Shown: positions 1 to 43,213 of the stretch, piece by piece
Position numbering within the stretch: the stretch's first letter is position 1
How the letters are laid out: every line of letters starts with the position of its first letter
Origin: Candidatus Latescibacterota bacterium
Lineage (GTDB): Bacteria > Latescibacterota > UBA2968 > UBA8231
DNA: 64,000 bases
Direction of reading: 5' to 3'
NCBI GenBank assembly: GCA_965248265.1
Contig: CBDFJF010000002.1
Coordinates: 3,648,001-3,712,000, forward strand
Position numbers and translations under genes: made by a program
The notes under the pieces: generated by a model
What the model saw: only the letters and a program-made list of their open reading frames with translations
Database searches by the model: none
Told to the model about the DNA's origin: nothing

Positions 1-1195
1 TACCGTTGATGATTCCCACCCTGTCCGAGGTCCGGTAGCGCTTGCCGCCCTGTGGCATGACCAGGAACGTATCCCCGAGCAAGACGTCGAGCAGGTAACC
101 GTCGAGCAGTCGGTCGGCCAGTCCCTGGCGTTGAATCTCCTGCACCAGCGGCAGAAACCAGAACTGGTGGCAGTGAACATTACCGTCGCTGATCTCGAAT
201 CCATCGTGTAGCGTCGCAGCGTCGTCGGTTGCCAGTGGATCGAAGGCGTGCCAGGCGGCATCATGTCGTTCACACAGCTGCCGAGCGTAGCGTGCCTCCC
301 TCTCGTACCAGCTGCAATGCACGACGGGCAGTCCGGGTTGATTCTGCGAGGCCGCCGCAAGGAGAGTACGGGAATCCAAACCACCACTGAGCGGCACGCC
401 GATCTTCTCGACGCCATCCATGCAACGGTCGACTGCCCCCTGCAGCAAACTTCCCCCCTCTTCCAGCAGTTGATCCCTGGGCGTATCACTCGATGAAACG
501 AAATCAAAGTGATAGTCCCAGTACTGACGTTGCTGAAATCCGTTCGGCGACACCTCGATCACGCTGGCGTTGCCGACAAGGGTGATCCCTTCGAACAGTG
601 ACCGTGTGCCACTGACATAGGCGAAATTGAACAGGTCGCACAAGGCGATGCGGTCCGCCCGAATCACGTACCCCTCGGTCGCGACCAGGGCTTTGACCTC
701 GGTAGCAAAGGCCAGCATGTCATCCGTGCGCCGGATGTAGAGATGCCGGGCACCGTTGCGGCAGTTGAACAGCTTCAGCAACCTGCTGTCTTCATCATAG
801 AGACAAATGTTGAACAGCCCCTTGAGCTCAGAGACCAGGTCATCGCTCCGGCTTTGGTAGGACGCACGCACCAGCTCCTCATCACGCCAGGAGCCGTCGA
901 CAGAACCAGAACTCCCAAGTCGTGCAGCGATCTCCCGGCCATTGGTCAGGTACCCGTCGATGACGACCCTTATTCGCTCCGAGCCAGCGGACCTGTCACC
1001 GTCTGTGGTCTTGGCTTGACAGCATTCCGTCGTCGGTGCAAAGCGATAGTGGGTCACGCCAAAATGCTCGTCGGCGAAGGAAGTGCTGGTGTGCGGGTGA
1101 CGTACCTGGATGGTCGCGGTCATGGCCCCGACCGCCTCGCCGACGCGCTCCACGCTCCTGGGTGAGTGAAAATAGCAGCCGTAAAGTCCAGGCAT
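1..1195 (-). CDS. Asparagine synthase-like (AsnB-family) ATP pyrophosphatase lacking the N-terminal Cys; 3' end runs off the window
   Basis: Not in the ORF track; translated by hand from ATG 1195: MPGLYGCYFHS...LKGLFNICLYDE...LAFATEVKAL...QYWD...GVPLSGGLDSRTLLA. Open to the window edge; starts 2 nt after the stop of the M55 gene. Confidence 0.85.
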   Translation of the reverse strand, partial: MPGLYGCYFHSPRSVERVGEAVGAMTATIQVRHPHTSTSFADEHFGVTHYRFAPTTECCQAKTTDGDRSAGSERIRVVIDGYLTNGREIAARLGSSGSVDGSWRDEELVRASYQSRSDDLVSELKGLFNICLYDEDSRLLKLFNCRNGARHLYIRRTDDMLAFATEVKALVATEGYVIRADRIALCDLFNFAYVSGTRSLFEGITLVGNASVIEVSPNGFQQRQYWDYHFDFVSSSDTPRDQLLEEGGSLLQGAVDRCMDGVEKIGVPLSGGLDSRTLLAAASQNQPGLPVVHCSWYEREARYARQLCERHDAAWHAFDPLATDDAATLHDGFEISDGNVHCHQFWFLPLVQEIQRQGLADRLLDGYLLDVLLGDTFLVMPQGGKRYRTSDRVGIING

Positions 1196-1197
1196 CC

Positions 1198-2028
1198 TCA
1201 TCCGGCTCCGATGAACTCATTCCACAGCGATGCCAGATCAGCTCCGCTCAGAACCGTTCTCCTGAGTCCGCGCACTCGTACCTGCCGTCGGCGTCGGCGG
1301 CGCAGCAAGCGCTTGAGAGGAACGCGCCAGGAGTATCTGAAGTAGTATTCCACTTCGAGAACAACGGGAGTGCTCAACGACAGGGCACTGATTTCTCCGA
1401 TTCTTCCCAGGCTCTGGCGCACTCCGCTCTCGATCGCGGTGCAGGCTTCAGTCGCCGGCATGCTCAGGCAGGACTGGCGTGACAGCCCCTGCTTGACCGC
1501 GACCGTCGTGACCTGCGGCAGCCAGTCTTCGGCCTCTGCCACGGCGGCATCGTCGCCGCTGACGAAAACTGAGGGAACGCCGAAACTGGATGCCATGCCC
1601 GCAACCAGCGCGATCTCCCCTGCATCGCGGCCATTGATCGCAACCCGCTTGATACGCTGCCGGCTGTAGGTGTGACACAGGTGACCTGCTGGCGTGGCCA
1701 CCATCGCATGCTGCCCGACCATGACTACGGCCGCGAAGCCATCATCCAACATCGGCAACCACGAAGTCCGGCCTTTGCCATGGATGACGCGTGCCGGAGG
1801 ATCCAACAGATCCATGGGGAGCGATTCTCCACTGCTGTGATTGTCCAGTACGACGACCTCCTCGGCTCCGGCGCTCACGGCGCCGCGCACGGCCGCATTC
1901 ACCTCACCTGCCCACAAGCGCAGAAAACGATTCCGGCGCTCAACATCCCCTGGAATGTCAGGAGAGAACACGTCGAAACCGCTGACACCGCTGACGCCTT
2001 CGAGATCGGCTACGACATAGACCTTCAC
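1198..2028 (-). CDS. Peptidase M55 family (DppA-like D-aminopeptidase)
   Basis: MKVYVVADLEGVSGV, DNH, GQHA, LCHT, GEIAL, VSGDDA motifs match M55 zinc ligands and fold; GTGA overlap with upstream gene. Confidence 0.9.
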   Translation of the reverse strand: MKVYVVADLEGVSGVSGFDVFSPDIPGDVERRNRFLRLWAGEVNAAVRGAVSAGAEEVVVLDNHSSGESLPMDLLDPPARVIHGKGRTSWLPMLDDGFAAVVMVGQHAMVATPAGHLCHTYSRQRIKRVAINGRDAGEIALVAGMASSFGVPSVFVSGDDAAVAEAEDWLPQVTTVAVKQGLSRQSCLSMPATEACTAIESGVRQSLGRIGEISALSLSTPVVLEVEYYFRYSWRVPLKRLLRRRRRRQVRVRGLRRTVLSGADLASLWNEFIGAG

Positions 2029-2999
2029 GACGACGCCGGCTCGCCTTCAGGAGGATAGGTGTGTCCGTACCATTCCGTGAACTGGGAATAGGTCGGAGAC
2101 CAGCAATCGTCGCTCAGTTCAGCGACGAAGGAGATGAAACGTTCGAACTGGATCGGTTCGATATCCTTGGGGTCGAGGTAAATGTTGGTGATGGCACCAA
2201 ATTCCACAGCGCGGAGGAGCCGGTCCTGCAACAGGTCGAAAAAATCGTCGCGGTGCCAACCTCCTCTGGCATACTTTGCGTGCCAGGTGTCGAGGGAGGC
2301 AAAGGGATGCTGCGGACAGGTGGTAACGGGAATCTCCAGGACTCCCCCTTTCCATACAGGCAGTCCGAATTGCTCACCCCGGGCCGCCAACATGGAAGTA
2401 GAATATTTCAGTTGCTCGGATTCGAGAATGTCGTACAGATCCGCTGGATCAACGTTGCCGAAGTGGGGGGCACGAAACCCGCGAGCCTGTTGTCCAAGCA
2501 CTTCGAGGATGACGCGCTGACATTCAACCACCTCGTGTGCTTTCTCCTCCAGCGTCAACTCGCTCCAGCGTCTCTCTGTCAGATCATCTCGCACTGACAC
2601 GAACCGACCTGGGGCATTGACCAACTCCGGATGCGAGAACGAGTGGTTGAGTATCTCCTGATCATGTTCGAGTATCACACGATGTTCATCCGGATAGTCC
2701 GCCACCCACCTGCCGATACAGGCAAAACTGCCGCCTACCTCGTAGTCATGCATTAGTTCCAGCAGAGCGGGTAAAGCGAACACGTCTTCCGGAAAGTCGC
2801 AGTCGAATGACAGCAGCAGGCAGGAAGCACGGCCGTTCCAGCTGATACCGCTGTCCCGAAATGCACGATCCATCGTCGTGGCGAGCGGCCTGGCGACGAC
2901 CTGCCCCAGGAGTTGTACCGGGCGCGAACGCGATGCGAGCACTCTGTGCAGGATACGATCGATTACCATGCGACCGGGCTCACGCTCCTCGCTCTTCAA
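2025..2999 (-). CDS. Polysaccharide deacetylase (NodB/CE4-like)
   Basis: LSFDCD, EILNHSFSHP, GFRAP, LEIPVT motifs. Confidence 0.85.
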   Translation of the reverse strand: MKSEEREPGRMVIDRILHRVLASRSRPVQLLGQVVARPLATTMDRAFRDSGISWNGRASCLLLSFDCDFPEDVFALPALLELMHDYEVGGSFACIGRWVADYPDEHRVILEHDQEILNHSFSHPELVNAPGRFVSVRDDLTERRWSELTLEEKAHEVVECQRVILEVLGQQARGFRAPHFGNVDPADLYDILESEQLKYSTSMLAARGEQFGLPVWKGGVLEIPVTTCPQHPFASLDTWHAKYARGGWHRDDFFDLLQDRLLRAVEFGAITNIYLDPKDIEPIQFERFISFVAELSDDCWSPTYSQFTEWYGHTYPPEGEPASS

Positions 3000-4909
3000 T
3001 CCACTTCACTCAGAGGAGTGTCTGGCTGAAGTGGATCTCCATCGTCTAGGTACATACGGCACCACAACTCAAGACACATCAAACTCCAGACCTGTTGCGC
3101 CTGTCGCGATCCGAAATGTTTCCAGTGTTCCAGCAAGCCGGACACGTACGCCGGCTCGAACCACCCACGGTGGCGCACACTCTGCGGGGACAGAATGCGT
3201 CGGATATCGTCTTCGATTCCAGAACGGGTCCAGTAGGCGAACGGAACAGCCAGGCCCTGCTTGGTCCGCGACACGATCTGCTGCGGGACATATTTGCCCA
3301 GTGCCCGCTTCAACAGCCACTTCTCGTTGCCGCCTCGAATTTTCAATCGATGACTGACCGACAAGGCGAGCTCTGAAACCCGATGATCAAGAAAGGGTGT
3401 GCGCCCCTCCAGCGATACGGCCATCGTCATGCGATCTGTGCGGGCCAACATGCACTCTGGGAGTCGCAGCTTGGCATCGCACAGGAGCATCCTGTCCATG
3501 TCGCTGCCATTGCCTCGTCCGGCAACACGAGAATACAGTTCGACAGCTGCCCCGGACCTGCTCAAATCGCGAAACTCGGCTGCGTACAGGCGCTCTCGTT
3601 CCCCATCATCGAACGAACTCACCCAGCGAACCAGTCGTTCGGGAAAGCTGACCTGCCCCATCTCACTGGCTCGAAGGAAGTTCTCTCCGAGCAGGCGCTG
3701 CGGCAGCATCGCTGTGACGGAGTGTGCAAACCGGCGGATAGACAACGGCACCTTCGCGTATCGCTGGAAATAGCGATCGGTGCGAAACCGGGTGTATCCG
3801 CCGAACAGCTCATCAGCCCCTTCGCCCGTCAGCACGACCTTCACGTGACGGCGGGCCAGTTGGGAAACCTCGTAGGTCGGCACGATAATGGGATCGGCAA
3901 AGGGTTCGTCGAAATGGTGCAGCAGACGTGGCAACGCCTGGACACTGCTCGCCGTGCAATCCACTTCGTAGTGCTCGGTGTCGTGAGCTTCAGCGACCTG
4001 GCGCGCGAACCCTGTCTCATCTACCCGCTCCTCCTCGCTGAAGCCGATAGAGAACGTCTTCACTGGTTGCTCAGAGACGCTGCGCATCAGTCCGACGATC
4101 GCACTCGAATCCAGGCCGCCACTCAGAAACGCTCCCAGGGGAACTTCGCTCATCAACCGCATGCGCACGGCATCCCTGAGAAGATCTTGCAGTTGCGCCT
4201 CGATCTCATCAGTGGAACCGAGATCTTGTGGTTGCGGCTGCCAGTACTCGTCGATCACCGGGGCATCGCCGCTCAGAGAGAACCTCAAACGATGTCCCGG
4301 AAGAAGCTTTCCAATCCCCTCGAACATGGTCGTATCGGCCGGCAGATATCTCAGACTGAGGAAGAGGTCGAGTCCGCGGGTGTTCAGCTTCTTCGGAATC
4401 ATGTCCACGGCAAGTATCGATTTGAGCTCCGAGCCGAATATCAGCGTGCCCTCGTGAATCCCGTAGTACAACGGCTTGATTCCCATCCGGTCCCGCGCCA
4501 GCATGGCAATCTGCGCCCGTCGATCCCAGATCGCGAACGCAAACATGCCGTTGAGATGATCCACACAGGCCTCTCCGTACTCTTCATACAGATGAGCAAT
4601 GACCTCGGTGTCGGACGAAGTGCTGAAGGAGTGTCCTCGCTGTTCCAGACCTGATCTCAACTCCGAGTGGTTGTAGATCTCGCCGTTGAAAACGACGCCG
4701 ACAGATCCGTCCTCGTTGTAGATCGGCTGGTGGCCACCTGCCAGGTCGATAATGCTGAGACGGACGTTGAACAACCCGACTCCCGCCTCAACATGGTACC
4801 CCACGTCGTCGGGTCCTCGGTGACGCAGGACATGGGCCATGCGCTCAAGGAGATCCCTACCGCTTTCGGGTGCTATGTGCGCGCCGATGATGCCGCCGAT
4901 TCCACACAT
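2996..4909 (-). CDS. asnB: Asparagine synthase (glutamine-hydrolysing)-type amidotransferase
   Basis: Start set at MCGIGG (ATG 4909); HRGPDD, FNGEIYN, LSGGLDSS, GEGADELFGGY, SLEGRTPFLD. Confidence 0.93.
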   Translation of the reverse strand: MCGIGGIIGAHIAPESGRDLLERMAHVLRHRGPDDVGYHVEAGVGLFNVRLSIIDLAGGHQPIYNEDGSVGVVFNGEIYNHSELRSGLEQRGHSFSTSSDTEVIAHLYEEYGEACVDHLNGMFAFAIWDRRAQIAMLARDRMGIKPLYYGIHEGTLIFGSELKSILAVDMIPKKLNTRGLDLFLSLRYLPADTTMFEGIGKLLPGHRLRFSLSGDAPVIDEYWQPQPQDLGSTDEIEAQLQDLLRDAVRMRLMSEVPLGAFLSGGLDSSAIVGLMRSVSEQPVKTFSIGFSEEERVDETGFARQVAEAHDTEHYEVDCTASSVQALPRLLHHFDEPFADPIIVPTYEVSQLARRHVKVVLTGEGADELFGGYTRFRTDRYFQRYAKVPLSIRRFAHSVTAMLPQRLLGENFLRASEMGQVSFPERLVRWVSSFDDGERERLYAAEFRDLSRSGAAVELYSRVAGRGNGSDMDRMLLCDAKLRLPECMLARTDRMTMAVSLEGRTPFLDHRVSELALSVSHRLKIRGGNEKWLLKRALGKYVPQQIVSRTKQGLAVPFAYWTRSGIEDDIRRILSPQSVRHRGWFEPAYVSGLLEHWKHFGSRQAQQVWSLMCLELWCRMYLDDGDPLQPDTPLSEVD

Positions 4910-4963
4910 GCTATGAGACCCTTTCACTGTGGCCGGAATTGGCGCCTGCCATGCACGTGGTGC

Positions 4964-6841
4964 TCACGCGTCGCCACGCTTGCGCAGCGAAAACAAGGCA
5001 TAGTAGCGGTCGTGGTACTCCAATTTGAGGAATCGCTTCCTGAACTCTTCGTGCAGAGGATCCTGGAAGTACTGCGGGTATCCGAGCCGTTGTCGGGACC
5101 CAGGGATATTGATCATCCGGGCGATGTGAGTGATCTCCAATTCTTGCAAATTGAGAAAGAGGCTCTGGGCATCCTGCCCGTCATAGGAGAGAACCGATTG
5201 ATGAGGGTGATCCCATAAGTATTCCCGATCGCAATAGTAGCCCTTGACGATCCCCTGAAGGAGCACGGTGGCGGTTTCGGGCAGGTTGTTGTTGATGTGC
5301 TGAAAAAGGCGGTAGTTGCTCTCATTGGTGCTGAGGAAATCATCTCTTGACTGAGAGCCAAAGACGACATCCGAAAACGCACTCGCGTGCAGATAACTCC
5401 CTGTCATATTCAAGACACACGAGGCCACGAATACAACCTTGAACAGGGCGCCCACGACTCGGATCCTATGGGAGGCCAGATGCTCTGCCACCAGGCCGCA
5501 CAAAACAGCCGCAAAGGCCAGCAGAGCGATACCATATCGAGGATTCATGTGCAGGAAGCGAATCAGAATCAGGTAATAGACGCAACAGAAACCGAGGAGG
5601 ACCATGACCCTTCTATCACGAGCGCACAGCACCAGGCCTGGTAATAGAGCCAGGAAGTAGCCCCCTACCGCGCGCTGAAGCGATGGCGGCTCGAAGGTCC
5701 ATCTCCACAGAGACAGAGAATGCCAATGTGATTGGAGCCATTCTACCGGCAGGAAGAGCGCGGAGAGGTAGTTCCCGACCGTAGATTGTTTCGGCCCGCC
5801 TGCCAGTAACCTGGGCGCGGTTCTGAACGGCTCCCCGTCGAAAAAACCATTCGCGAGGGGCCACACCGGATTGCTGGCAAAATAGAGTGCCCTCGCGTAC
5901 CACGGGGCGATCAGCAAACACGACAGACCCGTATACACACCAAGATCGACCATGCCTTGGCGAACGCCGTGCGTGCGGATGCCGACGAATCCGACCACGG
6001 CTGCACCCATCATCAAGGTTACCAGCCCCTGATGCTTGACCCCCATCGCCAACCCAGTCAGGATGGCAGCCAGCACGAGAGCACCGTGGGTCCGCGAACG
6101 CGTCCAGCGCAGGACCGCCCACAGGGCACAGAACTGAAAAAAACACAATCCCAGATCGACGTAGGCCTGCCTTCCGAATCCCACGACCAACGGAACGAAA
6201 CTGAAGATGGAGGCCGCCCACACACCCGCCTTCGCGCAAAAGAAGCTGCGGCCGAACCCAACGATGGCGACGCATGTCAGAACGGCCATCGTCAGGTGTA
6301 TCGTCTGCGCCACGGTGCCGTTGCCGAGGGCGATAGCGACTGCGTAGAGCAAGCCCATGTTGTTAGGATAGAGCGTGCCGTTGACAGTCGGCGCGAAACT
6401 CAATGCGTGCTCACGCAGGAAAATCTTCGGCAACGCGAGGTGGTACGCCAGCGGGTCCGTGGCGCCATGCGGGGGCGCCAATGCACCAACCCAATTCAGA
6501 ATCATCGCCAACATGGCGACGACGATGACCCAGAAATAGACAGAGGACGAAAAGACAGGCTGGGTCTTCAGCCAGGAAATGAACTCCAGCAAGGCTCGAT
6601 AGAATACCGGGACTCCGGTTACAAACCAGAGAATCGTCGCGGCGGCCACGACCTGCGGGTACAACAGCGACGACAACCCCAACATCAATATGATGAGGAT
6701 CAGCGCCCCGAATCCTAGAGCCACTGAGAAACAACCGGCTTCCAATCGATCACTGCTGCCCTTGTCGATCAAGCCCAGCAGACGCGAACCTGCGCCAAAG
6801 GCGCCGACCACCAGCAACAGTGTGATAATGGTCTCCGTCAC
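4964..6841 (-). CDS. Multi-pass GT-C glycosyltransferase (ArnT/PMT-like)
   Basis: Many hydrophobic helices; D-x-L-x-YHL-x-LP loop motif (TDPLAYHLALPK), YVDL, PWY, NPVWP, RY; GTG 6841 follows a G/A-rich RBS. Confidence 0.8.
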   Translation of the reverse strand: MTETIITLLLVVGAFGAGSRLLGLIDKGSSDRLEAGCFSVALGFGALILIILMLGLSSLLYPQVVAAATILWFVTGVPVFYRALLEFISWLKTQPVFSSSVYFWVIVVAMLAMILNWVGALAPPHGATDPLAYHLALPKIFLREHALSFAPTVNGTLYPNNMGLLYAVAIALGNGTVAQTIHLTMAVLTCVAIVGFGRSFFCAKAGVWAASIFSFVPLVVGFGRQAYVDLGLCFFQFCALWAVLRWTRSRTHGALVLAAILTGLAMGVKHQGLVTLMMGAAVVGFVGIRTHGVRQGMVDLGVYTGLSCLLIAPWYARALYFASNPVWPLANGFFDGEPFRTAPRLLAGGPKQSTVGNYLSALFLPVEWLQSHWHSLSLWRWTFEPPSLQRAVGGYFLALLPGLVLCARDRRVMVLLGFCCVYYLILIRFLHMNPRYGIALLAFAAVLCGLVAEHLASHRIRVVGALFKVVFVASCVLNMTGSYLHASAFSDVVFGSQSRDDFLSTNESNYRLFQHINNNLPETATVLLQGIVKGYYCDREYLWDHPHQSVLSYDGQDAQSLFLNLQELEITHIARMINIPGSRQRLGYPQYFQDPLHEEFRKRFLKLEYHDRYYALFSLRKRGDA

Positions 6842-6990
6842 GCTTCCCCTCCCCTCACCCAACTCCAGATCAACGCGAAAAACCCCATCTCTGCGTAGAA
6901 CAGATACAGAATAGCGATGCTCCAAAGCAAGACGGTGACGCTGGCTGTAAAACTCGCCATCTGGCGACCCGACGGAGGCATACTTGTCAC
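6838..6990 (-). CDS. Small (50 aa) membrane protein
   Basis: GTG 6990 overlaps the asnB TGA (GTGA) and its own TGA overlaps the GT-C GTG (GTGA); hydrophobic ASVTVLLWSIAILYLFY...FFALIWSW. Confidence 0.65.
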   Translation of the reverse strand: MTSMPPSGRQMASFTASVTVLLWSIAILYLFYAEMGFFALIWSWVRGGEA

Positions 6991-8870
6991 CCCTTGTCCG
7001 TCTGCTGGAGCCACATCTCCAGCACCAGCAACGCCCACAGCTGTTGGCTGTAGTCCCGTTTACCCGACATATGTCCGCTCACCATCATGGCTACGTATGC
7101 AGGGTTGAAAAGTCCCCTCTCCTTGAAGGTCTGTCCCAGAAGCAGATCTTCCATCCAGGGTCGCAACTCGTTCTTCAACCAGCTAGCAACGGGGACTGCA
7201 AACCCGTGCTTTCGGCGGTCGACGATGCTATCGGGCAGGTATCGGCGAGCAACGCTTCGCAACAGGTTCTTTCCACTCAAGCCGGTGAATTTTCGCTTGC
7301 GCGGAATTGTTGACATGAATTCAACCACGTCCTTATCCAGGAATGGCGCTCGCACTTCCAGGGAACACGCCATGCTCATGCGATCGACCTTGGTGAGGAT
7401 GTCATCGGGCAGGTAGGTCATCAGATCCAGCCACAGCATCGCTTGCGACCCGGCATGCTGTTGGCGCTCGTAGTAATCCTGGTAACTCGGCTTGAGATCC
7501 ACGCTCAACGAGGATCGGAATCCCGCATCGTAAAGCTGGCTCTTCTCATCTTCGGTGAAAAAGAAGGCCCAGCTTGTCGAAGGACTCTCACCCACCTTCT
7601 GCGCGAACTCCATGAAGCGGCGGACCTTCTTCCTCTTGCTGGCCCCGTAATACCCTGCTGGTTCGCCGATATGGCCCATGACAGACTCGAAACAGCGACG
7701 CCCCAGCCACGGCGGCCAACCGTTGTACAGGTTGACCCATTGTCGTGCCCGATAACGCCGGTATCCCCCGAACACTTCGTCTGCCCCATCGCCGCTTAGC
7801 GCGACCGTGACATGCTCTCGGGTCACTTTCGAAAGCTGGTACATCGGAATCGCTGAGGAATCCGCGAACGGTTCCCCGAAATGCCGGAGCATGGAGGGCA
7901 ATACCTGCTGGGCATCGTAGGTCACCCTCACCTCCGAGTGCTCCGTGTCGAGTTGATCCGCCACCTGGCGCGCGTACTGCAGCTCGTCGTACGAGGAGTC
8001 TTCGAAGCCAACGGACACGGTGCGAATGCGCTCGCCAGACATCTTCCTCATCAGCGCGACAACGAGGCTGGAATCGAGACCACCGCTGAGAAAAGCCCCC
8101 AACGGTACGTCAGCCACCAATCGCTTCTCCACGGCTTGCTGCAGCAATGCGTCGACGGCGTCCTCGGCATCTCCCCCATCCATTTCCCGTGGGACATACT
8201 CGACAGACCAGTAGCGAGTGCTCTCCAACCGGCCATTGCGATACAACGCCCAAGATCCAGCAGGGAGCTTTTTTGCTCCTTGATAAATTGTTCTTGGATG
8301 TGGGACGAACAAATAAGAGAGGTACTCGTCGATCGCGTTGTGATCGAGCGTGTCATCGACTGCTGGATCGCACAGCAAGGCTTGCAGCTCAGACCCGAAC
8401 GTCAACCCCTCGCCGGTCACAGCATAATACAGCGGCTTCTTGCCAACGGGGTCGCGGGCGAGGAAGAGTGTGCGCTCCCGGGTATTCCAGATGGCCACCG
8501 CAAACATACCCTGTAGCTGCCCTAGACACTTCGCACCCATTTCTTCAAAAAGATGGAGAACAACCTCTGTGTCGGAGGCGCTCTCAAGAGTGTGCCCACG
8601 ACTCAACAGTTGCTTGCGTAGCTCGCGATAGTTGTAAATCTCACCGTTGAAGACAATCCACAGGGTTCGGTCTTCATTGCACATCGGTTGATGCCCGCCG
8701 GCCAAATCGATGACTTTGAGCCGCCGCATACAGAGTCCCGCCTGACCCGAGGCAAAAAATCCCTCATCGTCGGGGCCCCGGTGAGCGATGCTCGCACACA
8801 TGCTCCGCAGCAACGCCTCGTCGACTTCGCACTCGGCGTTCGAATGAACCTTCCCAGCAATGCCACACAC
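6987..8870 (-). CDS. asnB: Asparagine synthase (glutamine-hydrolysing)-type amidotransferase
   Basis: GTG 8870 gives MCGIAG with AAGGAGG upstream; HRGPDD, FNGEIYN, LSGGLDSS, GDGADEVFGGY, SLEVRAPFLD. Confidence 0.93.
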   Translation of the reverse strand: MCGIAGKVHSNAECEVDEALLRSMCASIAHRGPDDEGFFASGQAGLCMRRLKVIDLAGGHQPMCNEDRTLWIVFNGEIYNYRELRKQLLSRGHTLESASDTEVVLHLFEEMGAKCLGQLQGMFAVAIWNTRERTLFLARDPVGKKPLYYAVTGEGLTFGSELQALLCDPAVDDTLDHNAIDEYLSYLFVPHPRTIYQGAKKLPAGSWALYRNGRLESTRYWSVEYVPREMDGGDAEDAVDALLQQAVEKRLVADVPLGAFLSGGLDSSLVVALMRKMSGERIRTVSVGFEDSSYDELQYARQVADQLDTEHSEVRVTYDAQQVLPSMLRHFGEPFADSSAIPMYQLSKVTREHVTVALSGDGADEVFGGYRRYRARQWVNLYNGWPPWLGRRCFESVMGHIGEPAGYYGASKRKKVRRFMEFAQKVGESPSTSWAFFFTEDEKSQLYDAGFRSSLSVDLKPSYQDYYERQQHAGSQAMLWLDLMTYLPDDILTKVDRMSMACSLEVRAPFLDKDVVEFMSTIPRKRKFTGLSGKNLLRSVARRYLPDSIVDRRKHGFAVPVASWLKNELRPWMEDLLLGQTFKERGLFNPAYVAMMVSGHMSGKRDYSQQLWALLVLEMWLQQTDKG

Positions 8871-8886
8871 CGCCGACGCAGCCTCC

Positions 8887-10104
8887 TTAAACCCTGGCCG
8901 TGACTTCGGCGTAGATACGGTCGGTCGCCTCTGCGGCAGCCTCCCATGTCCATCCCGATGTCTCGACACGCTCGCGCGCCGCCTTACCCATAGCCAGGAG
9001 CCGGTCTTTATCTCCCATCAGATCACGAATGGCCTCGGACAACCCGGCGCTGTCACCGGCGGCGACCAGGCGTCCGGTGATGCCGTCGGTGACGAGTTCA
9101 GGCACCCCTCCGACGCGGGAGGCGATTACGGGTCGCCCGCACGCCATAGCTTCAAGTACCACATTCGGACGCCCCTCGGAATGACTGGGCAGCACCAGCA
9201 GATCAGCCGCGTTAAGCCAATCAACCATCTCTTCACGAGGGCGTTGTCCGGCAAAGTGGACTCTTCTCAAGATCCCCCTTTCCCGAACCTGTTGCTCCAG
9301 CGACTCGCGCAGTGGGCCACCCCCGACCAGTACACACAACAGTTCCGGATCCTCTATCGTCTCGACCGCATTTAGCAGATTATCAACCCCCTTTACGGGG
9401 GCCAGCAAACCCAGAAACAGCACGATGAATCGGGCCTCCGGCAGGTCGAGCTTCAACCTCGCAGCCTCCTTCTCAAGCGGTCGGAATTCCTCTCCGACCC
9501 CATTGTAAACGACTCGAATCTTGGTGCTTTCGACCCCATGGGATTCCAACACACGCGCCAGGTCCTCGCTGACCGCAATGATGACATCCATCGAGCGCCA
9601 GATTCTACGACTTACCATCCCCATCAAACCACTGCTGAACAAGTGCACATCGCTGCCACGCACACTCAACACCACTGGCCGGCGGCAAACACGCGTCGCC
9701 AAGTATCCAATCAGCCCACAGATGGTCCAGTGACAATGGACGATCTGGGAGCGGCCAATTATCCGCAACGCGCGCAATAGGAAGCCCATCAGAAAGAACG
9801 GCACCAGTATTCGTGCCCAGAGACTGGATTTCAGATTGCTTGGGATACCGCCACCATATGCAAGGAGTTCGAGCCGGGCCGGCATTGCGTAGCGGAAACG
9901 CCGCACGACCACATCTCCCATCTGCTCCTGCACCGCCACTCCACTCGCGTGCGGCGCGATTACTTCCACTCCGAGACCACGCCGCGTGAGGTGTACGGCG
10001 AGGTCGAATATGAAACTGCCGAAAAGGTCGCCCCTGTAACGGGGAAACCCGGACGTCAACATGCACACCTTCAACCCGGCGTCGCCGACCTTGGGCATCG
10101 CCAC
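8887..10104 (-). CDS. Glycosyltransferase family 4 (GT-B)
   Basis: IVHCHW, AVSE, VYNGV, KGVD, PSHSEGRPNVVLEAMACGRPVIASRVGGVPE. Confidence 0.92.
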   Translation of the reverse strand: MAMPKVGDAGLKVCMLTSGFPRYRGDLFGSFIFDLAVHLTRRGLGVEVIAPHASGVAVQEQMGDVVVRRFRYAMPARLELLAYGGGIPSNLKSSLWARILVPFFLMGFLLRALRIIGRSQIVHCHWTICGLIGYLATRVCRRPVVLSVRGSDVHLFSSGLMGMVSRRIWRSMDVIIAVSEDLARVLESHGVESTKIRVVYNGVGEEFRPLEKEAARLKLDLPEARFIVLFLGLLAPVKGVDNLLNAVETIEDPELLCVLVGGGPLRESLEQQVRERGILRRVHFAGQRPREEMVDWLNAADLLVLPSHSEGRPNVVLEAMACGRPVIASRVGGVPELVTDGITGRLVAAGDSAGLSEAIRDLMGDKDRLLAMGKAARERVETSGWTWEAAAEATDRIYAEVTARV

Positions 10105-10106
10105 TC

Positions 10107-11051: not shown

Positions 11052-11104
11052 GTATTCGATCCTTGTTTCTGTGGTGTGGAGATAAATACTCCGCTCTCTT
11101 CTCC

Positions 11105-16943: not shown

Positions 16944-16947
16944 GTTT

Positions 16948-31564: not shown

Positions 31565-31602
31565 TCACCTAATCAGGTTCGTCTGACGATTGTATCATGC
31601 AC

Positions 31603-31630: not shown

Positions 31631-31715
31631 AGCGGACTAGTCAGGGTCTGCTGAGGAAGTTTTTACCTAGACGAACGGTTCATCGCGACGTGGCTTGAAT
31701 GTAGGAGAAGACCTT

Positions 31716-31970: not shown

Positions 31971-32003
31971 ATCTGGCCTCACACTGAAGCAACTACGATC
32001 GAG

Positions 32004-35831: not shown

Positions 35832-36745
35832 TCATACACGCCCGTGCTCAGATAGCGCATACCACTGTCGCACAGAATAGTCACGACACTCTGATCAGAC
35901 GCCATCTCGGCCGCAACCTCAGCCGCGGCGAGAGCATTCGCCCCTGCTGATATGCCGACGAGGACACCCTCTTCGCGCGCGAGTCGACGCGACATCAGAT
36001 AGGCATCGTCGTCGCTGACCGTCCTCACCTCATCTAGCACATCGCGGTTGAGGACGTCCGGCACGAAGCCGGCCCCAATCCCCTCGATGTAGCTCAATCC
36101 AGGAGCACCGCCCGACAGGACCGCGGAGCCTTCGGGCTCAACGGCAATGACGCGCACGTCAGGAAGCTCCGCCTTCAGAATCTCACCGATACCGGTTATC
36201 GAACCCCCCGTGCCAACCCCGGCGACGACGGCGGCGATGCCTTCCGGCATCTGTGCCAGGATTTCCCTCGCCGTGGTTTCGCGGTGTATCTGCGGATTCG
36301 CCAGATTGGCGAACTGCTGCGGCAGAAAGTATCCCGGATTCTGACGCGTCAGTTCCAGCGCCCGTTCGATGGCTCCACGCATGCCCTCGGAGGCCGGTGT
36401 CAACAGCACCTCAGCGCCGTACGCCTGCATCTGTTGCCGGCGTTCCTTACTGGCCGTATCGAACATGGTCAGGATCAACCGGTAGCCCTTCACCGCCGCT
36501 ACCATGGCGAGGCCGATCCCGGTGTTGCCGCTGGTCGGCTCGACGATGGTTCCACCGGGCTTCAGGTCGCCGGCCTCTTCGGCTGCCTCGATCATGGCCA
36601 GTGCAATCCGGTCCTTGACGCTGCCACCTGGGTTGGCGGACTCCAGCTTGGCCCATACCTGAGCACCGTCTTCGTTTACCACACGGTTCAACCGCAGCAT
36701 CGGCGTGGCGCCTATGAGCTCGAGGACATCGTTTGCGCGTTTCAT
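35828..36745 (-). CDS. cysK: Cysteine synthase A (PLP)
   Basis: KLESANPGGSVKDRIA, EPTSGNTGIGLA, QQFAN, GVGTGGS, IEGIGAGFVP, GISAGA; ATG 36745. Confidence 0.93.
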   Translation of the reverse strand: MKRANDVLELIGATPMLRLNRVVNEDGAQVWAKLESANPGGSVKDRIALAMIEAAEEAGDLKPGGTIVEPTSGNTGIGLAMVAAVKGYRLILTMFDTASKERRQQMQAYGAEVLLTPASEGMRGAIERALELTRQNPGYFLPQQFANLANPQIHRETTAREILAQMPEGIAAVVAGVGTGGSITGIGEILKAELPDVRVIAVEPEGSAVLSGGAPGLSYIEGIGAGFVPDVLNRDVLDEVRTVSDDDAYLMSRRLAREEGVLVGISAGANALAAAEVAAEMASDQSVVTILCDSGMRYLSTGVYE

Positions 36746-36768
36746 CGTACTGACTCCGATGTTGTCAT

Positions 36769-38850
36769 CTATTGTGTGGTCTCCAATGTCGTGATCCGCT
36801 TGCTGATGGATTCTCCCAAGGCGGCGTTCGGTGCGTGGGGTAGGAACTTGCGGTAGTTGCCAACGGCAGCGCTTCTCATTCCCAGGTTTTCCTGCGCTCT
36901 GGCCAGAGCATAGTGCAACTTGACCCTCTCGGGCCACCGGCGCAGGCCGTGTGCACTCAGTGCTTGCGCCTCCTGAAATCGTCCCAGGCGCAGGTACACG
37001 AGGGCGAGATTGTAGCGAGCATCGTGCATCTTCTCATCAATGGATATGGCCACCTGGTAATGGTGGATGGCCGCTTCCAGTTTGTTCTGGTCGAAATGCA
37101 GATTCCCAAGACTGTAATGCGTCACGGCAGAGGCCGGCGCGAGGACAAGCGCTCTTTTTAGCGCGCTCTCCGCCGCCGCAATCTGACCTCGGTCTTTGTA
37201 GAGCAGTCCTAGTGCTCGCCATACATCAGGATTACTCGGCTCCAGCGTGCGCGCCTGTTCCATCAAGGCGATGGACTCGTCCGGTCGTACCTGGCGCAAC
37301 AGCGTCGAGAGGTTCACCAATGCGGGCACGAAGGTGTCCCCACTCGCCTGCAGACTTACCCGGTACGCCTGCTCAGCCACGACGGGGCGGTCCAGCATCC
37401 TGAGCGCGTTGCCCTTGTTGTAATGGACCTCCGGGACCTGGGGTGCCAGCATCGATGCGGTCTCATAACGCCTCAGTGCCTCATTGAAATCCCCTCGAGA
37501 TTCATGGACACCACCCAGTTCCTGATGTGCCCGGAACATCAAGGGTCCCTTGCTGACCGCATCCGACCAGATCGTGAAATTGCTTTTCCATGCATGATTG
37601 CGCTCATGAGATACCAGCGCGAACGACAACACGCACATGCAAAGGATGATCCGGATCGTCCAAACCCGATTTGACCGAGCGCCCTTCTCTACAACGGCGA
37701 TCAATCCGGCGAGTGCGATCGCGCCGAAGGCCATAGGCAGATAGAGACGGTGTTCATTCACCAGGACATTGAGCGGAACGATGACCGTTGGTAGTAAACT
37801 CAAGCCTGACCAGACCGCCGGTAGCAGCAGCGCCCAAACCACTATCGCGCGACTGCGTATGAGCAGGACGACGAGACTCACCATCAAGGCAGTGGCGACG
37901 ACGACGGCCGCTGATGCCAGCGATTCGCTGGCCAAGAACTGATGATCGATACTGAGCTTGATCGGCATGACGGTCAGCATTGCGTAGTAAGCGAGCGCCT
38001 TTGCCTGCGTGAACAATTGCGTGTCCAGTGAACGTACGGGCGTGGTCAGCGCTGTCGTGGCGAACTCTCTGACGACGATGATGTACCCGGCTGCGACAAT
38101 CCACAGTTGTAGATGTACTCGCAACAACCGGGCTACATCCGTGCCTGCATCCATCCGCGCGTCGGTCTCGACGTGGCCGCCTCGTCTTCTCCACCAGTCG
38201 AAGAACAAGATGGCCGCTGGCAGCGTTGCTACGATGGATTTGGCCAGCAGGCCAACGACCAGGGCAGCAACCGCAACCGAATAGAGCCACTTGCAGCTCG
38301 CCTTCTGGCCAACCGGCAAAATTCGAAATCGCACGAATGCGACCAGGCCAAGCAGGTACCCCAGCGCAGCCAGTGACTCCGAGCGGCTGCTGATGTAGTT
38401 GACGGTTTCCGCTTGTACGGGATGGAGTGCGAATACCAGGCTGGCGAATCCACTCCACATGGGTTTGAGACCGAGCCCACGGGCGAGTGCAAAAACCAAC
38501 ACTGCGCACACGGCGTGCACGCCCAGGTTCACCAGTCGATAGCCGTGGGCGCGGTATTGACCGAAATGGTGGTTGAGCGCGTAGGAAGTCAGCACCAGCG
38601 GGCGAAACATGGCGCGCTGGGTGAGCATGGAGAAGGTCTGTGGATCGGTGAAGAACTGTGGAATGTTGGTGAGACTGCGAATGTGGCGATTCTGGACGAT
38701 TGAGTGGTAATCGTCGTAGTGAAAGTCGTTGTCGAGGGAGTTCGCGTAGGTGAGGAAAAGGAGTACGACGACCAGGCCGAGCCCGATGCCTACGGGTACC
38801 GATGCCGCCGATTTCTCAACTGGGGGAGCTTTGGGTTGACGTTTGTTCAA
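36769..38850 (-). CDS. TMTC-like GT-C glycosyltransferase with C-terminal TPRs (paralog 2)
   Basis: NDFHYDDYHSIVQNRHI, MFRPL, FALHPVQAETVNYISSRSE, VNEHRLYLP, W.SNFTIWSDA, several TPRs. Confidence 0.88.
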   Translation of the reverse strand: MNKRQPKAPPVEKSAASVPVGIGLGLVVVLLFLTYANSLDNDFHYDDYHSIVQNRHIRSLTNIPQFFTDPQTFSMLTQRAMFRPLVLTSYALNHHFGQYRAHGYRLVNLGVHAVCAVLVFALARGLGLKPMWSGFASLVFALHPVQAETVNYISSRSESLAALGYLLGLVAFVRFRILPVGQKASCKWLYSVAVAALVVGLLAKSIVATLPAAILFFDWWRRRGGHVETDARMDAGTDVARLLRVHLQLWIVAAGYIIVVREFATTALTTPVRSLDTQLFTQAKALAYYAMLTVMPIKLSIDHQFLASESLASAAVVVATALMVSLVVLLIRSRAIVVWALLLPAVWSGLSLLPTVIVPLNVLVNEHRLYLPMAFGAIALAGLIAVVEKGARSNRVWTIRIILCMCVLSFALVSHERNHAWKSNFTIWSDAVSKGPLMFRAHQELGGVHESRGDFNEALRRYETASMLAPQVPEVHYNKGNALRMLDRPVVAEQAYRVSLQASGDTFVPALVNLSTLLRQVRPDESIALMEQARTLEPSNPDVWRALGLLYKDRGQIAAAESALKRALVLAPASAVTHYSLGNLHFDQNKLEAAIHHYQVAISIDEKMHDARYNLALVYLRLGRFQEAQALSAHGLRRWPERVKLHYALARAQENLGMRSAAVGNYRKFLPHAPNAALGESISKRITTLETTQ

Positions 38851-41247: not shown

Positions 41248-41721
41248 TCACTCCCCTTCGTCGATGTCGATCTGCACTTCTTCGAAATCCGCAGCCTCAC
41301 CATTCCATGCGAAAGCCTTGTGTCCCTTAACCTCGTCGTCGAAGACCGAGACAACGAGGTGAATCGCATCTGGATAGGCCGGTTCATCCCAGGTCAGGGC
41401 GCGCTCCTTATCTTCGTCCGAGAAGTACGCATCGCAGTCGATGTGCGAGTGGTAGAATCCGGAAACAGCACCGCCTCCCCGTTCGGCCTGGGTGATTACG
41501 GTTAGCAACTCCTTCGGATCGATGAAGTAGGCGATGCGGGCCTCACGAGGATACTGCTGCGGATCCTCCGCATGCAGACGATCCTGGATATTGACGCAGG
41601 GATGGGCGGTAGAGGGTCCCCCCTCCGGGCCGACGGTGAGCAAGCCGCAACACTCGGCCGGGTGTTCGTCGCGCGCCTGGGCGTAGATCTTGGCCAACTG
41701 TGTTCGGGATATCTTGAGCAT
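41248..41721 (-). CDS. Mec-like JAB/MPN (M67) metallopeptidase
   Basis: HPAECCGLL and JAMM motif FYHSHIDCDAYFSDED; start ATG 41721. Confidence 0.9.
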   Translation of the reverse strand: MLKISRTQLAKIYAQARDEHPAECCGLLTVGPEGGPSTAHPCVNIQDRLHAEDPQQYPREARIAYFIDPKELLTVITQAERGGGAVSGFYHSHIDCDAYFSDEDKERALTWDEPAYPDAIHLVVSVFDDEVKGHKAFAWNGEAADFEEVQIDIDEGE

Positions 41722-41726
41722 ATCTC

Positions 41727-42674
41727 TCAGTTGTCTCGTCGTCTCTCCGGCAACGTGACGGCCCCTTCCAGGGCCTGCCTCCACATTGGCGTGGTCATGT
41801 ATTTGTCACCGCCATCACAGAATACGGTTACGACGACGCCTTCATGCAGCTGCATGGCGATCTCGCGAGCTGCCCAGTAAGCGGCGCCTGCGGACTGGCC
41901 GACCAGGACACCCTTTTCTCGCGAGAGCTTGACCGTCATGTCGTAGGCGATTTCGGTGTCGAGTCCGATAACGTCGTCCAGCGCGCTTCGATCATATATC
42001 CCCGGCACGATGGAGCTGTCCATGTGCTTGAGCCCTTCAATACCGTGGAAAGACTCCGCCGGCTCTGCTCCGATAACCCGAATACCCGGATTCAGTGCTT
42101 TCAAACCCCGCCCAGTACCCATCACGGTACCACTCGTCCCCATGGTAGCTACAAAGTGTGTCACGCGGCCATCGGTCTGCTCCCAGATCTCGGGCGCTGT
42201 CGTGTCCCGGTGGGCTTTCCAGTTCGACGGATTGTTGTACTGGTCTGGCTTGTAGTACCGATCGGGATCTTCCTCCAGCAGACGGCGCGCCAGCAGGATG
42301 GCGCCGTCAGAGCCTTCTCCGGGATCACTGAAGACGACTTCTGCCCCGTAGGCAGCCAGGATCGCCTTGCGCTCGGCAGTGACATTCGAGGGCATCGCCA
42401 GCCGCACGTGATATCCCAGTGCAGCCCCGATCATGGCGTAGGCGATACCCGTGTTCCCCGAGGTAGAATCGAGGATGATTTTGTCCGGCGTCAACTGACC
42501 ACTGCTCTGGCCATCCACGATCATCCGCAAGGCTGGGCGATCTTTGACAGAGCCGGCGGGATTGAAGAATTCGAGCTTGGCGTATAGCTCAACATTCGGG
42601 GGCAGATCAGGATCCTTCAGTCGCAACAGCGGGGTATTGCCAATGGCATCAACGACGGAGCCGGGCGCCAGCAT
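41727..42674 (-). CDS. cysM: PLP-dependent cysteine synthase B / CysM-like
   Basis: IGNTPL, KLEFFNPAGSVKDRPA, DSTSGNTGIA, DQYNNP, GTSGT, IEGLK; adjacent to mec. Confidence 0.8.
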   Translation of the reverse strand: MLAPGSVVDAIGNTPLLRLKDPDLPPNVELYAKLEFFNPAGSVKDRPALRMIVDGQSSGQLTPDKIILDSTSGNTGIAYAMIGAALGYHVRLAMPSNVTAERKAILAAYGAEVVFSDPGEGSDGAILLARRLLEEDPDRYYKPDQYNNPSNWKAHRDTTAPEIWEQTDGRVTHFVATMGTSGTVMGTGRGLKALNPGIRVIGAEPAESFHGIEGLKHMDSSIVPGIYDRSALDDVIGLDTEIAYDMTVKLSREKGVLVGQSAGAAYWAAREIAMQLHEGVVVTVFCDGGDKYMTTPMWRQALEGAVTLPERRRDN

Positions 42675-43213
42675 TACTCCTCACCCGCTCCCACCGAACC
42701 ATGGAGGGTTTTGGTCTCCTGCTGCATGCTCTCCAGCTTCGCTTCAAGCGCGGCCAGTTCTGCATGTGCGGCTGCATTCTGATCGGCTCCGTCCAGACGC
42801 CGTTGATGCAGAACGCGAATGATGTTGCGGCTGACACTGCGGTTGATACCGGCGTTCTGCCTCATCAAGCGCTCGAAGGCAACCTTCTTCATGACCAGCA
42901 GGTTGGAATCGGCTGAAGAGCGAACGGTGGCCGAGCGCGGTTGGCCGGTGAACAACCCCATTTCCCCAACCGGGCTCACGGGAGCGACCCTGGCGATCTC
43001 GACTCCAGTCTCATCGTGGACCGTGAGCTCACCACTGAGCAGGATGGACAGATCGTCACTGGGTTGGCGGATCAGGCACAGCGTCTCCCCTTTTTTTACA
43101 GACTTGAACTCACATGCCTGCAGAATCGACGCCGCATCCTGCCGCGAGAGGTCCCCGAACATGGGGATCTTGTCCACGACCTGCAGCAGCGCTTTCAGCT
43201 TGTCGGCGTCCAT
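42674..43213 (-). CDS. Cyclic-nucleotide-binding domain protein with C-terminal coiled coil (no HTH)
   Basis: IPMFGDL...ILLSGEL...GEMGLFTGQPRSATVRS; TAATG overlap with cysM. Confidence 0.85.
   Translation of the reverse strand: MDADKLKALLQVVDKIPMFGDLSRQDAASILQACEFKSVKKGETLCLIRQPSDDLSILLSGELTVHDETGVEIARVAPVSPVGEMGLFTGQPRSATVRSSADSNLLVMKKVAFERLMRQNAGINRSVSRNIIRVLHQRRLDGADQNAAAHAELAALEAKLESMQQETKTLHGSVGAGEE

Follow-up and report, generated by a model that had tools for sequence, protein, structure and literature searches.

We analyzed a 64,000-nt stretch of DNA from a Candidatus Latescibacterota bacterium (GenBank assembly GCA_965248265.1, contig CBDFJF010000002.1), hereafter called the window. 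Within it, positions 1 to 43213 had been proposed in an earlier note to form one pathway of protein O-glycosylation, comparable to that of the animal TMTC enzymes. The genes in question are T1, T2 and T3, each of which encodes a glycosyltransferase domain of the GT-C type (GT, glycosyltransferase) followed by tetratricopeptide repeats (TPRs), and G1 and G2, which encode giant exported proteins. We conclude that T1–T3 are probably protein glycosyltransferases of the TfpW/TMTC architecture, with plausible, unproven substrates. For the 43 kb as a whole we tentatively prefer, at slightly less than an even chance, the reading that they are a mosaic, in which T1–T3 would be periplasmic protein glycosyltransferases that depend on polyprenyl-phosphate sugars, and G1 and G2 would be plausible clients. 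The mosaic would consist of a surface-glycan cluster (1–16.4 kb) that holds both of the GT2 enzymes resembling synthases of undecaprenyl-phosphate (Und-P) sugars, an operon of G2, G1 and two exported accessory proteins, and a third part in which T1 lies behind rpsT while T2 and T3 lie within a CysM-JAB-CysO-CysK operon. The case that T1–T3 act on a giant surface protein, or that the 43 kb are one pathway, is circumstantial; we infer the identity of the donor, the periplasmic topology, the protein acceptors and the role of G1 and G2 as substrates.

The three proteins are 568–693 amino acids (aa) long and share 33–35% pairwise identity (35% between T2 and T1). TPR families fill the last ~160–250 residues of each, and are preceded by helices that number, counting those of membrane-spanning length, ~12–13 in the structural model of T1, or 7–11 by simple hydropathy. 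The motif FHYDD stands directly after the first transmembrane (TM) helix in T1, T2 and T3, and its two aspartates, D37 and D38, were invariant in two alignments of the family (30/30 and 60/60 aligned rows); H40, R74, R156, S157, K200, R271 and R365 were likewise invariant in the alignment of 60 TM domains. AlphaFold models of T1 reached a pLDDT of 89.5 for the full length and 90.4 for the TM domain alone. The full-length model retrieved only TPR proteins in a fold search of the PDB and gave no information on the TM domain. When the TM-only model was submitted to Foldseek, the significant matches were all GT-C enzymes. The top solved match was Pmt4 of C. thermophilum (9i5k; E 8.7e-4, TMq 0.52). 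Next came AglB (3wak), PglB (5ogl), yeast Pmt4, STT3, Pmt1/2 and ArnT, and ALG9 was also found. The Foldseek probability was 1.00 for Pmt4, AglB, PglB, STT3, Pmt1/2, ArnT, AftB and AftD, 0.99 for DPY19 and at least 0.9 for EmbB; the PDB matches listed included no structure of a TMTC, and the sequence identity of the T1 TM domain to the PMT matches was 11–14%. On the strength of these models, the TM domain of T1–T3 is predicted to have the GT-C fold.

We then asked to which family these proteins belong. One genome per species was scanned for relatives, which yielded 63 loci from 33 assemblies (1.06 Mb in total), labelled Latescibacterota, Gemmatimonadota, Handelsmanbacteria, Planctomycetota or 'uncultured bacterium'; this set excludes the genome of the window itself, and the best identity to T1 was 48%. 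The 63 loci hold at least 207 copies of the TM domain of these TPR-GT-C proteins, of which 122, together with the three from the window, formed a set of 125 TM domains. PMT_2 or PMT matched 33 of the 125 at E ≤ 0.01, whereas DUF1736 (PF08409), against which the earlier note had asked for a profile comparison, matched none (0/125). A homologue search returned 229 proteins, mostly named 'tetratricopeptide repeat protein' in the source and some with a precomputed PMT_2 or PMT match; among the 120 homologues listed, PF08409 was absent from the precomputed Pfam lists, and five bore the JGI name 'protein O-mannosyl-transferase'. The Atlas neighbours of the TM domain, which serve as leads only, were headed by bacterial PMT_2 clusters (score 0.98), one of the three nearest being commonest in Bacteroidota (0.98), and a eukaryotic DUF1736 cluster came at rank 22 of 30 (0.94). 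Alignment of the family profile by hhalign gave no evidence of a close kinship with GTC_A and GTC_B, the two PMT_2-type GT-C enzymes of the window (E 0.13 for GTC_A; 0.0073, with a probability of 5%, for GTC_B). The architecture and the DD motif agree with TMTC but DUF1736 is not matched, and therefore we call T1–T3 TMTC/TfpW-like and do not file them as members of the TMTC family. The earlier description of three TMTC-like enzymes is thus retained for the fold, the C-terminal TPRs and the invariant DD, and not for family membership.

In a tree of 210 TM domains, T1 (nine rows) and T3 (18 rows) were each recovered as a single clade, with support 100 and 94, while the 17 T2 rows required two changes, one of which was due to a long-branch row. 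T1–T3 are thus three ancient, separately retained orthologous groups of paralogues. At least one further TPR-GT-C paralogue (P0115, 604 aa, 39% identical to the TM part of T3) is encoded elsewhere on the same contig.

Our searches of the literature on bacterial TMTC-like or GT-C plus TPR enzymes brought up no work on the family in the phyla concerned, and TfpW was the only studied bacterial enzyme of this architecture that we found. TfpW, the D-arabinofuranosyl (D-Araf) transferase of the group IV pilin of P. aeruginosa, is described as a GT-C protein of 646 aa with 11 TM helices, the motif DDX and a TPR domain on the periplasmic side; pilin glycosylation requires it, its gene lies immediately downstream of the substrate gene pilA, and D-Araf is supplied by a dedicated DprE-type cluster (bioRxiv 10.1101/2020.04.19.049825). 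T1–T3 resemble it in size and in the GT-C/DD/C-terminal TPR architecture, the comparison being with the published description only. Of the proline-rich motif described for TfpW, only the Y-x6-P part was seen in the T1–T3 family (Y287 invariant, P294 nearly invariant), and, unlike tfpW with its adjoining pilA, the window shows no pilin family among the Pfam matches of its genes. The animal TMTCs are reported to have 11 TM helices with the N-terminus inside, a strictly conserved DD in the loop that connects TM1 with TM2, TPRs at the C-terminus on the lumenal side and a loop from TM7 to TM8 that matches DUF1736 (E < 1e-30 in the human proteins), and the same paper notes homologues 'even among prokaryotes' (PMC7801869). 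Like TMTC1–4, whose paralogues are described as non-redundant, T1–T3 combine an N-terminal GT-C domain bearing the DD with C-terminal TPRs and occur as several paralogues. Unlike them, the T1–T3 family has no detected DUF1736 and lies nearer to bacterial PMT_2 clusters; moreover, its donor would be undecaprenyl-linked rather than dolichyl-linked, and acceptors of the cadherin EC type are unproven in the window. With the PMT/GT39 enzymes (Pmt4 9i5k, 9e6i and 9e61; Pmt1-Pmt2 6p25) the link is the fold, Pmt4 being the best solved match to T1, whereas no MIR domain was among the Pfam matches of the window and T1–T3 carry TPRs instead.

In the mechanism that we propose, each of T1–T3 would be an inner-membrane GT-C enzyme, with the loop of the DD motif and the TPR domain in the periplasm. 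The enzymes would take a sugar from a polyprenyl-phosphate donor and transfer it to Ser/Thr residues of exported proteins, which the TPR domain would bind as acceptors, as in TfpW with pilin and TMTC/PMT in eukaryotes. G1 and G2 would pass through the periplasm on their way to the surface, so they would be plausible substrates of T1–T3.

G2, G1 and the two exported accessory proteins form an operon-like run for giant, lineage-conserved surface proteins with T9SS-type C-terminal domains (T9SS, type IX secretion system). The C-terminus of G2 exceeded the cut-offs of TIGR04183 (35.4 bits against 23) and of Por_Secre_tail (27.8 against 27), and that of G1 exceeded the cut-off of FlgD_ig (34.6 bits against 27) but not that of Por_Secre_tail (21.2 bits); the last 108 aa of G1 are 42% identical to the C-terminus of G2. 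These sorting domains had not been recognized in the earlier note, and no genes of the T9SS machinery were seen in the window. In G2, a familyless part is followed by an X-module/dockerin (residues ~1760–1889; 25100–25489, minus strand), then by a region resembling cohesin and lastly by a sorting domain of the T9SS type A. No family is known for the N-terminal ~1750 aa, and an Atlas search with residues 30–1750 gave no usable match. The X-module/dockerin matched the CipA X-dockerin in a PDB sequence search (E 4e-5) and Dockerin_1 at 24.4 bits; a cohesin domain was also present in some G2 orthologues, and the two together hint at self-assembly of the surface protein. The 72 homologues of G2 (~2100 aa) are 49–93% identical to it, apart from a further five at 34–36%, a conservation that is unusually high for a surface protein.

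The sole above-threshold Big_9 match was to G1 (27.3 bits, cut-off 23.6), and Big_9 was also found in 54 of the 76 homologues of G1. Cadherin_4 or Cadherin_5 was found in seven of the 76, all of them distant (23–30% identical). No cadherin family matched G1 or G2 even at E ≤ 5, a PDB sequence search with G1 matched nothing, and BLAST self-comparison found no internal repeats in either protein at E ≤ 1e-3. A repeat count for G1 was abandoned when a hand-made pattern found only five sites, one of them inside the signal peptide. G1 would therefore be described as Ig-like, possibly cadherin-like, at most. As for composition, Ser plus Thr make up 14.5% of G1 and 15.9% of G2 compared with 11.0% in the other proteins of the window, and Asp 9.0% and 8.8% compared with 5.5%; both proteins show a moderate enrichment of Thr and Asp, Cys is nearly absent from them, and long tracts of Ser/Thr are lacking. 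All gene classes listed in the earlier note were found where it had placed them, including the two giant exported proteins; however, the richness of the latter in Ser, Thr and Asp was modest, and of the cadherin/Ig-like repeats reported for one of them a single Big_9 domain, in G1, was recovered. A second G1-like protein (P0197, 1445 aa, 69% identical) is encoded elsewhere on the same contig.

The 525-aa signal-peptide protein is the last gene in the operon-like run from G2 and G1; it matched nothing in NCBIfam or in Pfam (down to E ≤ 10) and may work with the giant proteins as their partner in the outer membrane. Upstream of G2, a stretch of ~0.9 kb (30767–31694) is without a convincing open reading frame (ORF), and the G+C content is lower here (0.544 in the bin 30001–32000). 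Rfam found nothing in it, the only match over the whole window being a tRNA-Met. Conservation in relatives was limited to ~100 nt next to the start of G2 and a short stretch at ~31417–31466. This region may be a long leader or a regulatory region.

We further counted the motif D[ST][AILVMT], reported as the O-glycosylation motif of Bacteroidota (PMC8550257; PMC12871550), and compared the counts with expectations from shuffled sequences, alongside four control motifs. The motif occurred 21 times in G1 (7.8 expected, z 5.0) and 22 times in G2 (12.7 expected, z 2.8), whereas the control motifs gave z values from –1.3 to 2.1. Each of the 43 full-length orthologues of G2 likewise had an excess (mean z 2.5, range 1.2–5.0), and the sites of G2 were kept in 70% of the orthologues on average, compared with 13–47% for the control motifs. 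Among the signal-peptide ORFs of the window and the related loci, where ORFs and signal peptides were called by crude heuristics, 111 motifs were found against 68 expected, of which five ORFs of the G1/G2 type contributed 89 (45.6 expected). We did not accept this count as evidence of a general enrichment in the signal-peptide proteins of the lineage, the signal being carried by the G1/G2-type ORFs; the excess is therefore a property of these proteins and not of a demonstrated general system.

The gene order was compared by tblastn of the window proteins against the 63 related loci. The block (G1)-G2/rpsT-T1/CysK-T2-CysO-T3-JAB-CysM-(cNMP)/AspRS was recovered, complete or truncated at the end of a contig, in 20 of the 63 loci (19 assemblies). 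In all of the ten loci that reach far enough, G2 stands beside the TPR-GT-C block, the other ten ending earlier, and G1 was present in the four of four that extend past G2. Linkage between the TPR-GT-C genes and a giant surface protein is therefore conserved, contrary to what would have spoken against the earlier note, but as evidence it is weak. T1 is missing between rpsT and CysK in four loci (L023, L036, L038 and L040) and T2 in two (L023 and L038), all of which keep G2. The ribosomal-protein gene rpsT, which the earlier note had not reported between G2 and T1, has the same position in 14 related loci. Past AspRS the order continues with the LysM protein (12 loci), PhoH (10), 7TM-HD (8), YbeY (6) and CorC (5), to the ends of the flanks; since the collinear stretch takes in housekeeping genes, it reflects general collinearity and not a dedicated locus.

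The family is also large and recurs in other contexts. When 1.84 billion representatives were searched with the profile, 122,179 proteins (representative clusters) matched at E ≤ 1e-3, of which 39,341 also did so at E ≤ 1e-30. In relatives, TPR-GT-C genes form head-to-tail arrays of up to ~9 genes per ~20 kb (L003, L005, L007, L009, L010, L013, L018, L025, L030, L035, L048 and others), which usually hold one AsnB-like amidotransferase gene (12/63 loci) and a GT4 gene, and are bounded at their end by lepA, lepB and a radical-SAM gene. The array of L055 is followed by Poly_export and Wzz, and in L060 homologues of the deacetylase, the M55 peptidase and an AsnB-like gene of the window are joined to an array. 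In a second recurrent context, a single TPR-GT-C gene stands directly downstream of a methyltransferase gene and a Polysacc_synt_3/MurJ-like flippase gene, in that order, and precedes homoserine dehydrogenase and other housekeeping genes (L017, L024, L028, L044, L049, L052, L054, L056, L059 and L061, around 7700–12400). With at least 207 copies of the family in the 63 loci, G1 and G2 do not have dedicated enzymes in T1–T3. The earlier claim that TMTC paralogues act on these two proteins accordingly keeps the architecture, the adjacency of G2 and the motif excess on its side, and loses the notion of dedicated partners.

Several observations weigh against T1–T3 as protein glycosyltransferases with G1 and G2 as clients. 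At E ≤ 10, Pfam gave the TM domains of T1–T3 no match, to DUF1736 or to any other family, and the family profile found nothing among the PDB sequences (searches with T3, with its TM part and with the profile returned no GT-C enzyme, only TPR or chance matches at E > 0.1). In the fold comparison, the margin by which protein-modifying GT-C enzymes (E ~1e-3) precede those that act on lipids or polysaccharides, such as ArnT, AftB and AftD (1.5e-2 to 3.6e-2), is small. The synteny is not specific, the collinearity being shared with rpsT, aspS, LysM, phoH, 7TM-HD, ybeY and corC, and the array and Wzx/MurJ-like flippase contexts fit glycan assembly equally with protein glycosylation. Finally, the other 34 signal-peptide ORFs hold 22 motifs against 17.4 expected, so that the excess sits in five ORFs, and the D-(S/T)-hydrophobic motif may be structural, reflecting β-strands.

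The first alternative is that T1–T3 and their paralogues act on non-protein acceptors, such as lipopolysaccharide (LPS) core or lipid A, exopolysaccharide (EPS) or a glycolipid. They would then add or polymerize sugars in the periplasm in the manner of ArnT, Emb/Aft or the three-component systems of the Gtr type, the TPRs would serve complex assembly or glycan binding, and the adjacency to G1 and G2 would be incidental. The arrays with AsnB-like and GT4 genes, the recurrent flippase context and the export genes behind the array of L055 speak for this alternative, since such contexts suit glycan assembly no less than protein glycosylation. The presence of ArnT, AftB, AftD and EmbB among the fold matches and the three AsnB-like genes that flank one GT-C gene (GTC_A) in the window also speak for it. 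We nevertheless consider it unlikely, because the best fold matches (Pmt4, AglB and PglB) modify proteins, if by a small margin, because TfpW, the only characterized bacterial enzyme that we found with this architecture, is described as glycosylating a protein, and because T1–T3 are conserved as three separate groups of orthologues that lie within a housekeeping operon and not in a glycan cluster.

The second alternative is that of the earlier note, in which the whole of 1–43 kb would be one pathway, with GT2 enzymes making the donors, TMTC-type enzymes initiating on G1 and G2, and the remaining genes elaborating a surface coat. All component classes are indeed found within 43 kb. The minus-strand genes at 2–16446 are part of a surface-glycan biosynthesis cluster of the EPS/LPS type that continues past the left edge of the window, and include two GT4 enzymes, two methyltransferases, three AsnB-like amidotransferases and one deacetylase, as well as the two GT2 enzymes with membrane anchors that the earlier note had reported (GT2a and GT2b, each with a C-terminal TM pair). 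The two PMT/ArnT-like GT-C enzymes were also recovered, as GTC_A and GTC_B. The best NCBIfam models of GT2a and GT2b were AglJ, ArnC, PgfS, PpgS and a Dol-P hexose transferase, all below their curated cut-offs (for GT2b and PgfS, 89.6 bits against 500); as these matches lie far below the cut-offs, 'DPM1/GtrB-like' polyprenyl-phosphate sugar synthases is a reasonable description of the two proteins, not proven.

A precedent for such clustering exists in streptococci, where, in the GtrB/PgtC2 and Pgf systems, a GT2 is reported to make an Und-P-sugar and a GT-C enzyme to pass the sugar on to Ser/Thr residues in proteins outside the cytoplasm; the Pgf cluster of S. mutans brings together the GT2 PgfS, the GT-C enzymes PgfM1 and PgfM2 and the adhesin substrates Cnm, CnaB and CbpA (PMC12041528). 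The proposed two-step logic of GT2 and GT-C is the same, and GT2b matches the PgfS model, below cut-off. However, the Pgf and PgtC2 GT-C enzymes are described there as YfhO-type without TPRs and their acceptors as disordered Ser/Thr-rich regions, which are absent from G1 and G2, and the GT2 genes of the window lie 16–22 kb from T1–T3. Because of TfpW beside its pilin and Pgf with its adhesins, as reported in these sources, the statement in the earlier note that no bacterial TMTC–substrate pair has been characterized needs qualifying.

In the 63 loci, no homologue of GT2a, GT2b, GT4b, GTC_A, the 525-aa protein or the TPR lipoprotein was found within 10 kb of a TPR-GT-C gene, and Glycos_transf_2 matched none of 59 neighbouring ORFs scanned in 15 loci. 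This result has little meaning for the orthologous loci, because their flanks stop inside G1; family-wide, it shows that TPR-GT-C genes are not, as a rule, linked to the gene of a GT2 donor enzyme. In addition, no flippase, GtrA-like or other, was found in the window among 28 large genes and nine unassigned ORFs of 60–199 aa (1–45.3 kb). One pathway would be favored by the constant adjacency of G2 to the TPR-GT-C block, by the conserved motif excess in G1 and G2 and by Big_9 in G1, with cadherin domains in its distant homologues. It is disfavored by the absence of GT2 linkage and of a flippase, by loci that keep G2 after losing T1 or T2, by a collinearity that spans housekeeping genes, by the lack of DUF1736 in the family and by the size of that family. 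We regard one pathway as improbable, and this part of the earlier note is not upheld.

Very improbable, finally, is the view that the TPR-GT-C family is the periplasmic transferase of a Bacteroidota-type D-(S/T)-hydrophobic O-glycosylation system, which could be either an initiating enzyme of the O-mannosyl type or an en-bloc O-oligosaccharyltransferase, with G1 and G2 as heavily modified clients: the motif is both over-represented and conserved in G1, in G2 and in the orthologues of G2, where four controls are not, oligosaccharyltransferases (AglB, PglB, STT3) and PMTs head the fold matches, relatives have a flippase-adjacent context and one near Atlas cluster is commonest in Bacteroidota, but outside the G1/G2 family the motif count scarcely exceeds expectation and the motif may reflect β-strand structure.

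The positions of these genes and of their neighbours are given in Table 1.

Table 1. Features of the window. Genes were called from the ORF listing, Pfam, NCBIfam and hydropathy; coordinates are those of the longest ORFs, and several genes of the 2–16446 cluster probably start later than given.
Feature	Position	Strand	Remarks
AsnB-like amidotransferase	2–1201	–	Cut by window edge; Pfam/NCBIfam
M55 peptidase	1198–2028	–	Pfam/NCBIfam
Polysaccharide deacetylase	2025–2999	–	Pfam/NCBIfam
AsnB-like amidotransferase	2996–4927	–	Pfam/NCBIfam
GTC_A, PMT_2-type GT-C	4964–6925	–	26.0 bits, just below the cut-off of 26.1; ~13 TM helices by hydropathy
AsnB-like amidotransferase	6987–8969	–	Pfam/NCBIfam
GT4	8887–10104	–	Pfam/NCBIfam
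GT2a	10107–11240	–	Glycos_transf_2; two C-terminal hydrophobic helices
GFO/IDH/MocA oxidoreductase	11105–12256	–	Nearest model UDP-GlcNAc 3-dehydrogenase, 160 bits (cut-off 450)
Trm112-methyltransferase	12159–13271	–	Pfam/NCBIfam
Methyltransferase	13226–14080	–	Pfam/NCBIfam
GT4 (second)	14005–15174	–	Pfam/NCBIfam
GT2b	15175–16446	–	Glycos_transf_2; two C-terminal hydrophobic helices
HNH-endonuclease ORF	16133–16798	–	HNH 27 bits; weak IscB-like match, 27 bits
133-aa ORF beside HNH ORF	16948–17349	–	Invasin_D3 (Ig-like) match, sub-threshold
525-aa signal-peptide protein	17360–18937	–	No known family; N-terminal hydrophobic segment
TPR lipoprotein-like protein	18891–19619	–	TPR_16; N-terminal hydrophobic segment
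G1, 1483 aa, exported	19654–24105	–	Ig-like Big_9; FlgD_ig/T9SS-type C-terminal domain
G2, 2135 aa, exported	24359–30766	–	T9SS type A sorting domain; dockerin
rpsT (ribosomal protein S20)	31695–31970	+	Ribosomal_S20p 90.5 bits; between G2 and T1
T1, TPR-GT-C	32063–33769	+	Directly behind rpsT; GT-C domain of ~12–13 helices, then ~4.5 TPRs
GTC_B, PMT_2-type GT-C, 695 aa	33744–35831	–	PMT_2 41.6 bits; start overlaps CysK stop
CysK, cysteine synthase A	35828–36937	–	TIGR01139 413 bits (cut-off 351); true start probably ~36745
T2, TPR-GT-C, 693 aa	36769–38850	–	TPR families at 437–677; ~11 hydrophobic helices; DNDFHYDD
CysO/ThiS-like sulfur carrier, 91 aa	38940–39215	–	ThiS 64 bits; C-terminus ...AIAGG
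T3, TPR-GT-C, 632 aa	39337–41235	–	TPR families; FHYDD
JAB/Mec-like metalloprotease	41248–41784	–	Prok-JAB 59 bits; JAMM motif H-x-H-x7-S-x2-D
CysM	41727–42674	–	TIGR01138 373 bits (cut-off 394)
Cyclic-nucleotide-binding protein	42674–43213	–	cNMP_binding 61 bits; first gene of minus-strand operon
AspRS, LysM protein, PhoH, 7TM-HD receptor, YbeY-like ORF, CorC	43431–51911	+	Same order in relatives
tRNA-Met	51977–52053		Rfam

T2 and T3 are interleaved with cysteine genes in a CysM-JAB-CysO-CysK operon (35.8–42.7 kb), an arrangement that the earlier note had passed over and that is kept in up to 20 related loci. The order of the minus-strand operon is cNMP-binding protein, CysM, JAB, T3, CysO, T2, CysK and GTC_B. 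In Mycobacterium tuberculosis, CysO, CysM and Mec carry out a sulfur-carrier type of cysteine synthesis. The window has the corresponding set in adjacent positions, namely a carrier of the ThiS fold that ends in GG, a JAMM protease and CysM; unlike that of M. tuberculosis, the set is interrupted by two GT-C plus TPR genes, and the window has no E1-like activating enzyme. The CysK homologues of the conserved block are 69–76% identical, and homologues of the cNMP-binding protein were present in seven of the 63 loci. GTC_B lies outside the conserved block; its homologue was found as a fragment only, in one of the 63 loci (L012). At the other end, the HNH-endonuclease ORF separates the glycan cluster from the surface-protein operon.

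A 2025 review of O-glycosylation in Bacteroidota states of the oligosaccharyltransferase (OTase), of the ligase and of the core flippase that they 'remain undiscovered', and proposes a search for homologues of the eukaryotic O-mannosylation system (PMC12871550). G1 and G2 resemble the cargo of that system, as described, in their D-(S/T)-hydrophobic motifs and T9SS-type C-terminal domains, whereas the organism of the window is not a member of Bacteroidota and its relatives are labelled Latescibacterota, Gemmatimonadota or Handelsmanbacteria. That the T1–T3 family is the missing transferase of a sequon-directed system shared by Bacteroidota and the lineages labelled Latescibacterota and Gemmatimonadota, with G1 and G2 as the clients that it modifies most heavily, is a long shot. 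If true, it would give a bacterial functional counterpart of TMTC/PMT O-mannosylation and would name an enzyme that the review (PMC12871550) lists as undiscovered.

Enzymes that combine a GT-C domain with acceptor-binding TPRs are known from animals (TMTC1–4) and from one bacterial pilin system (TfpW). The window adds three paralogues that separated anciently and keep their positions, together with G2 as a candidate client that is conserved, and thus offers putative enzyme–substrate pairs that can be cloned. If such pairs fail, the arrays with AsnB-like genes would point to an uncharacterized periplasmic glycan assembly in abundant uncultured phyla. If they work, TMTC-like protein glycosylation in bacteria would be opened to study, and the missing transferase of the Bacteroidota-type pathway might be identified.

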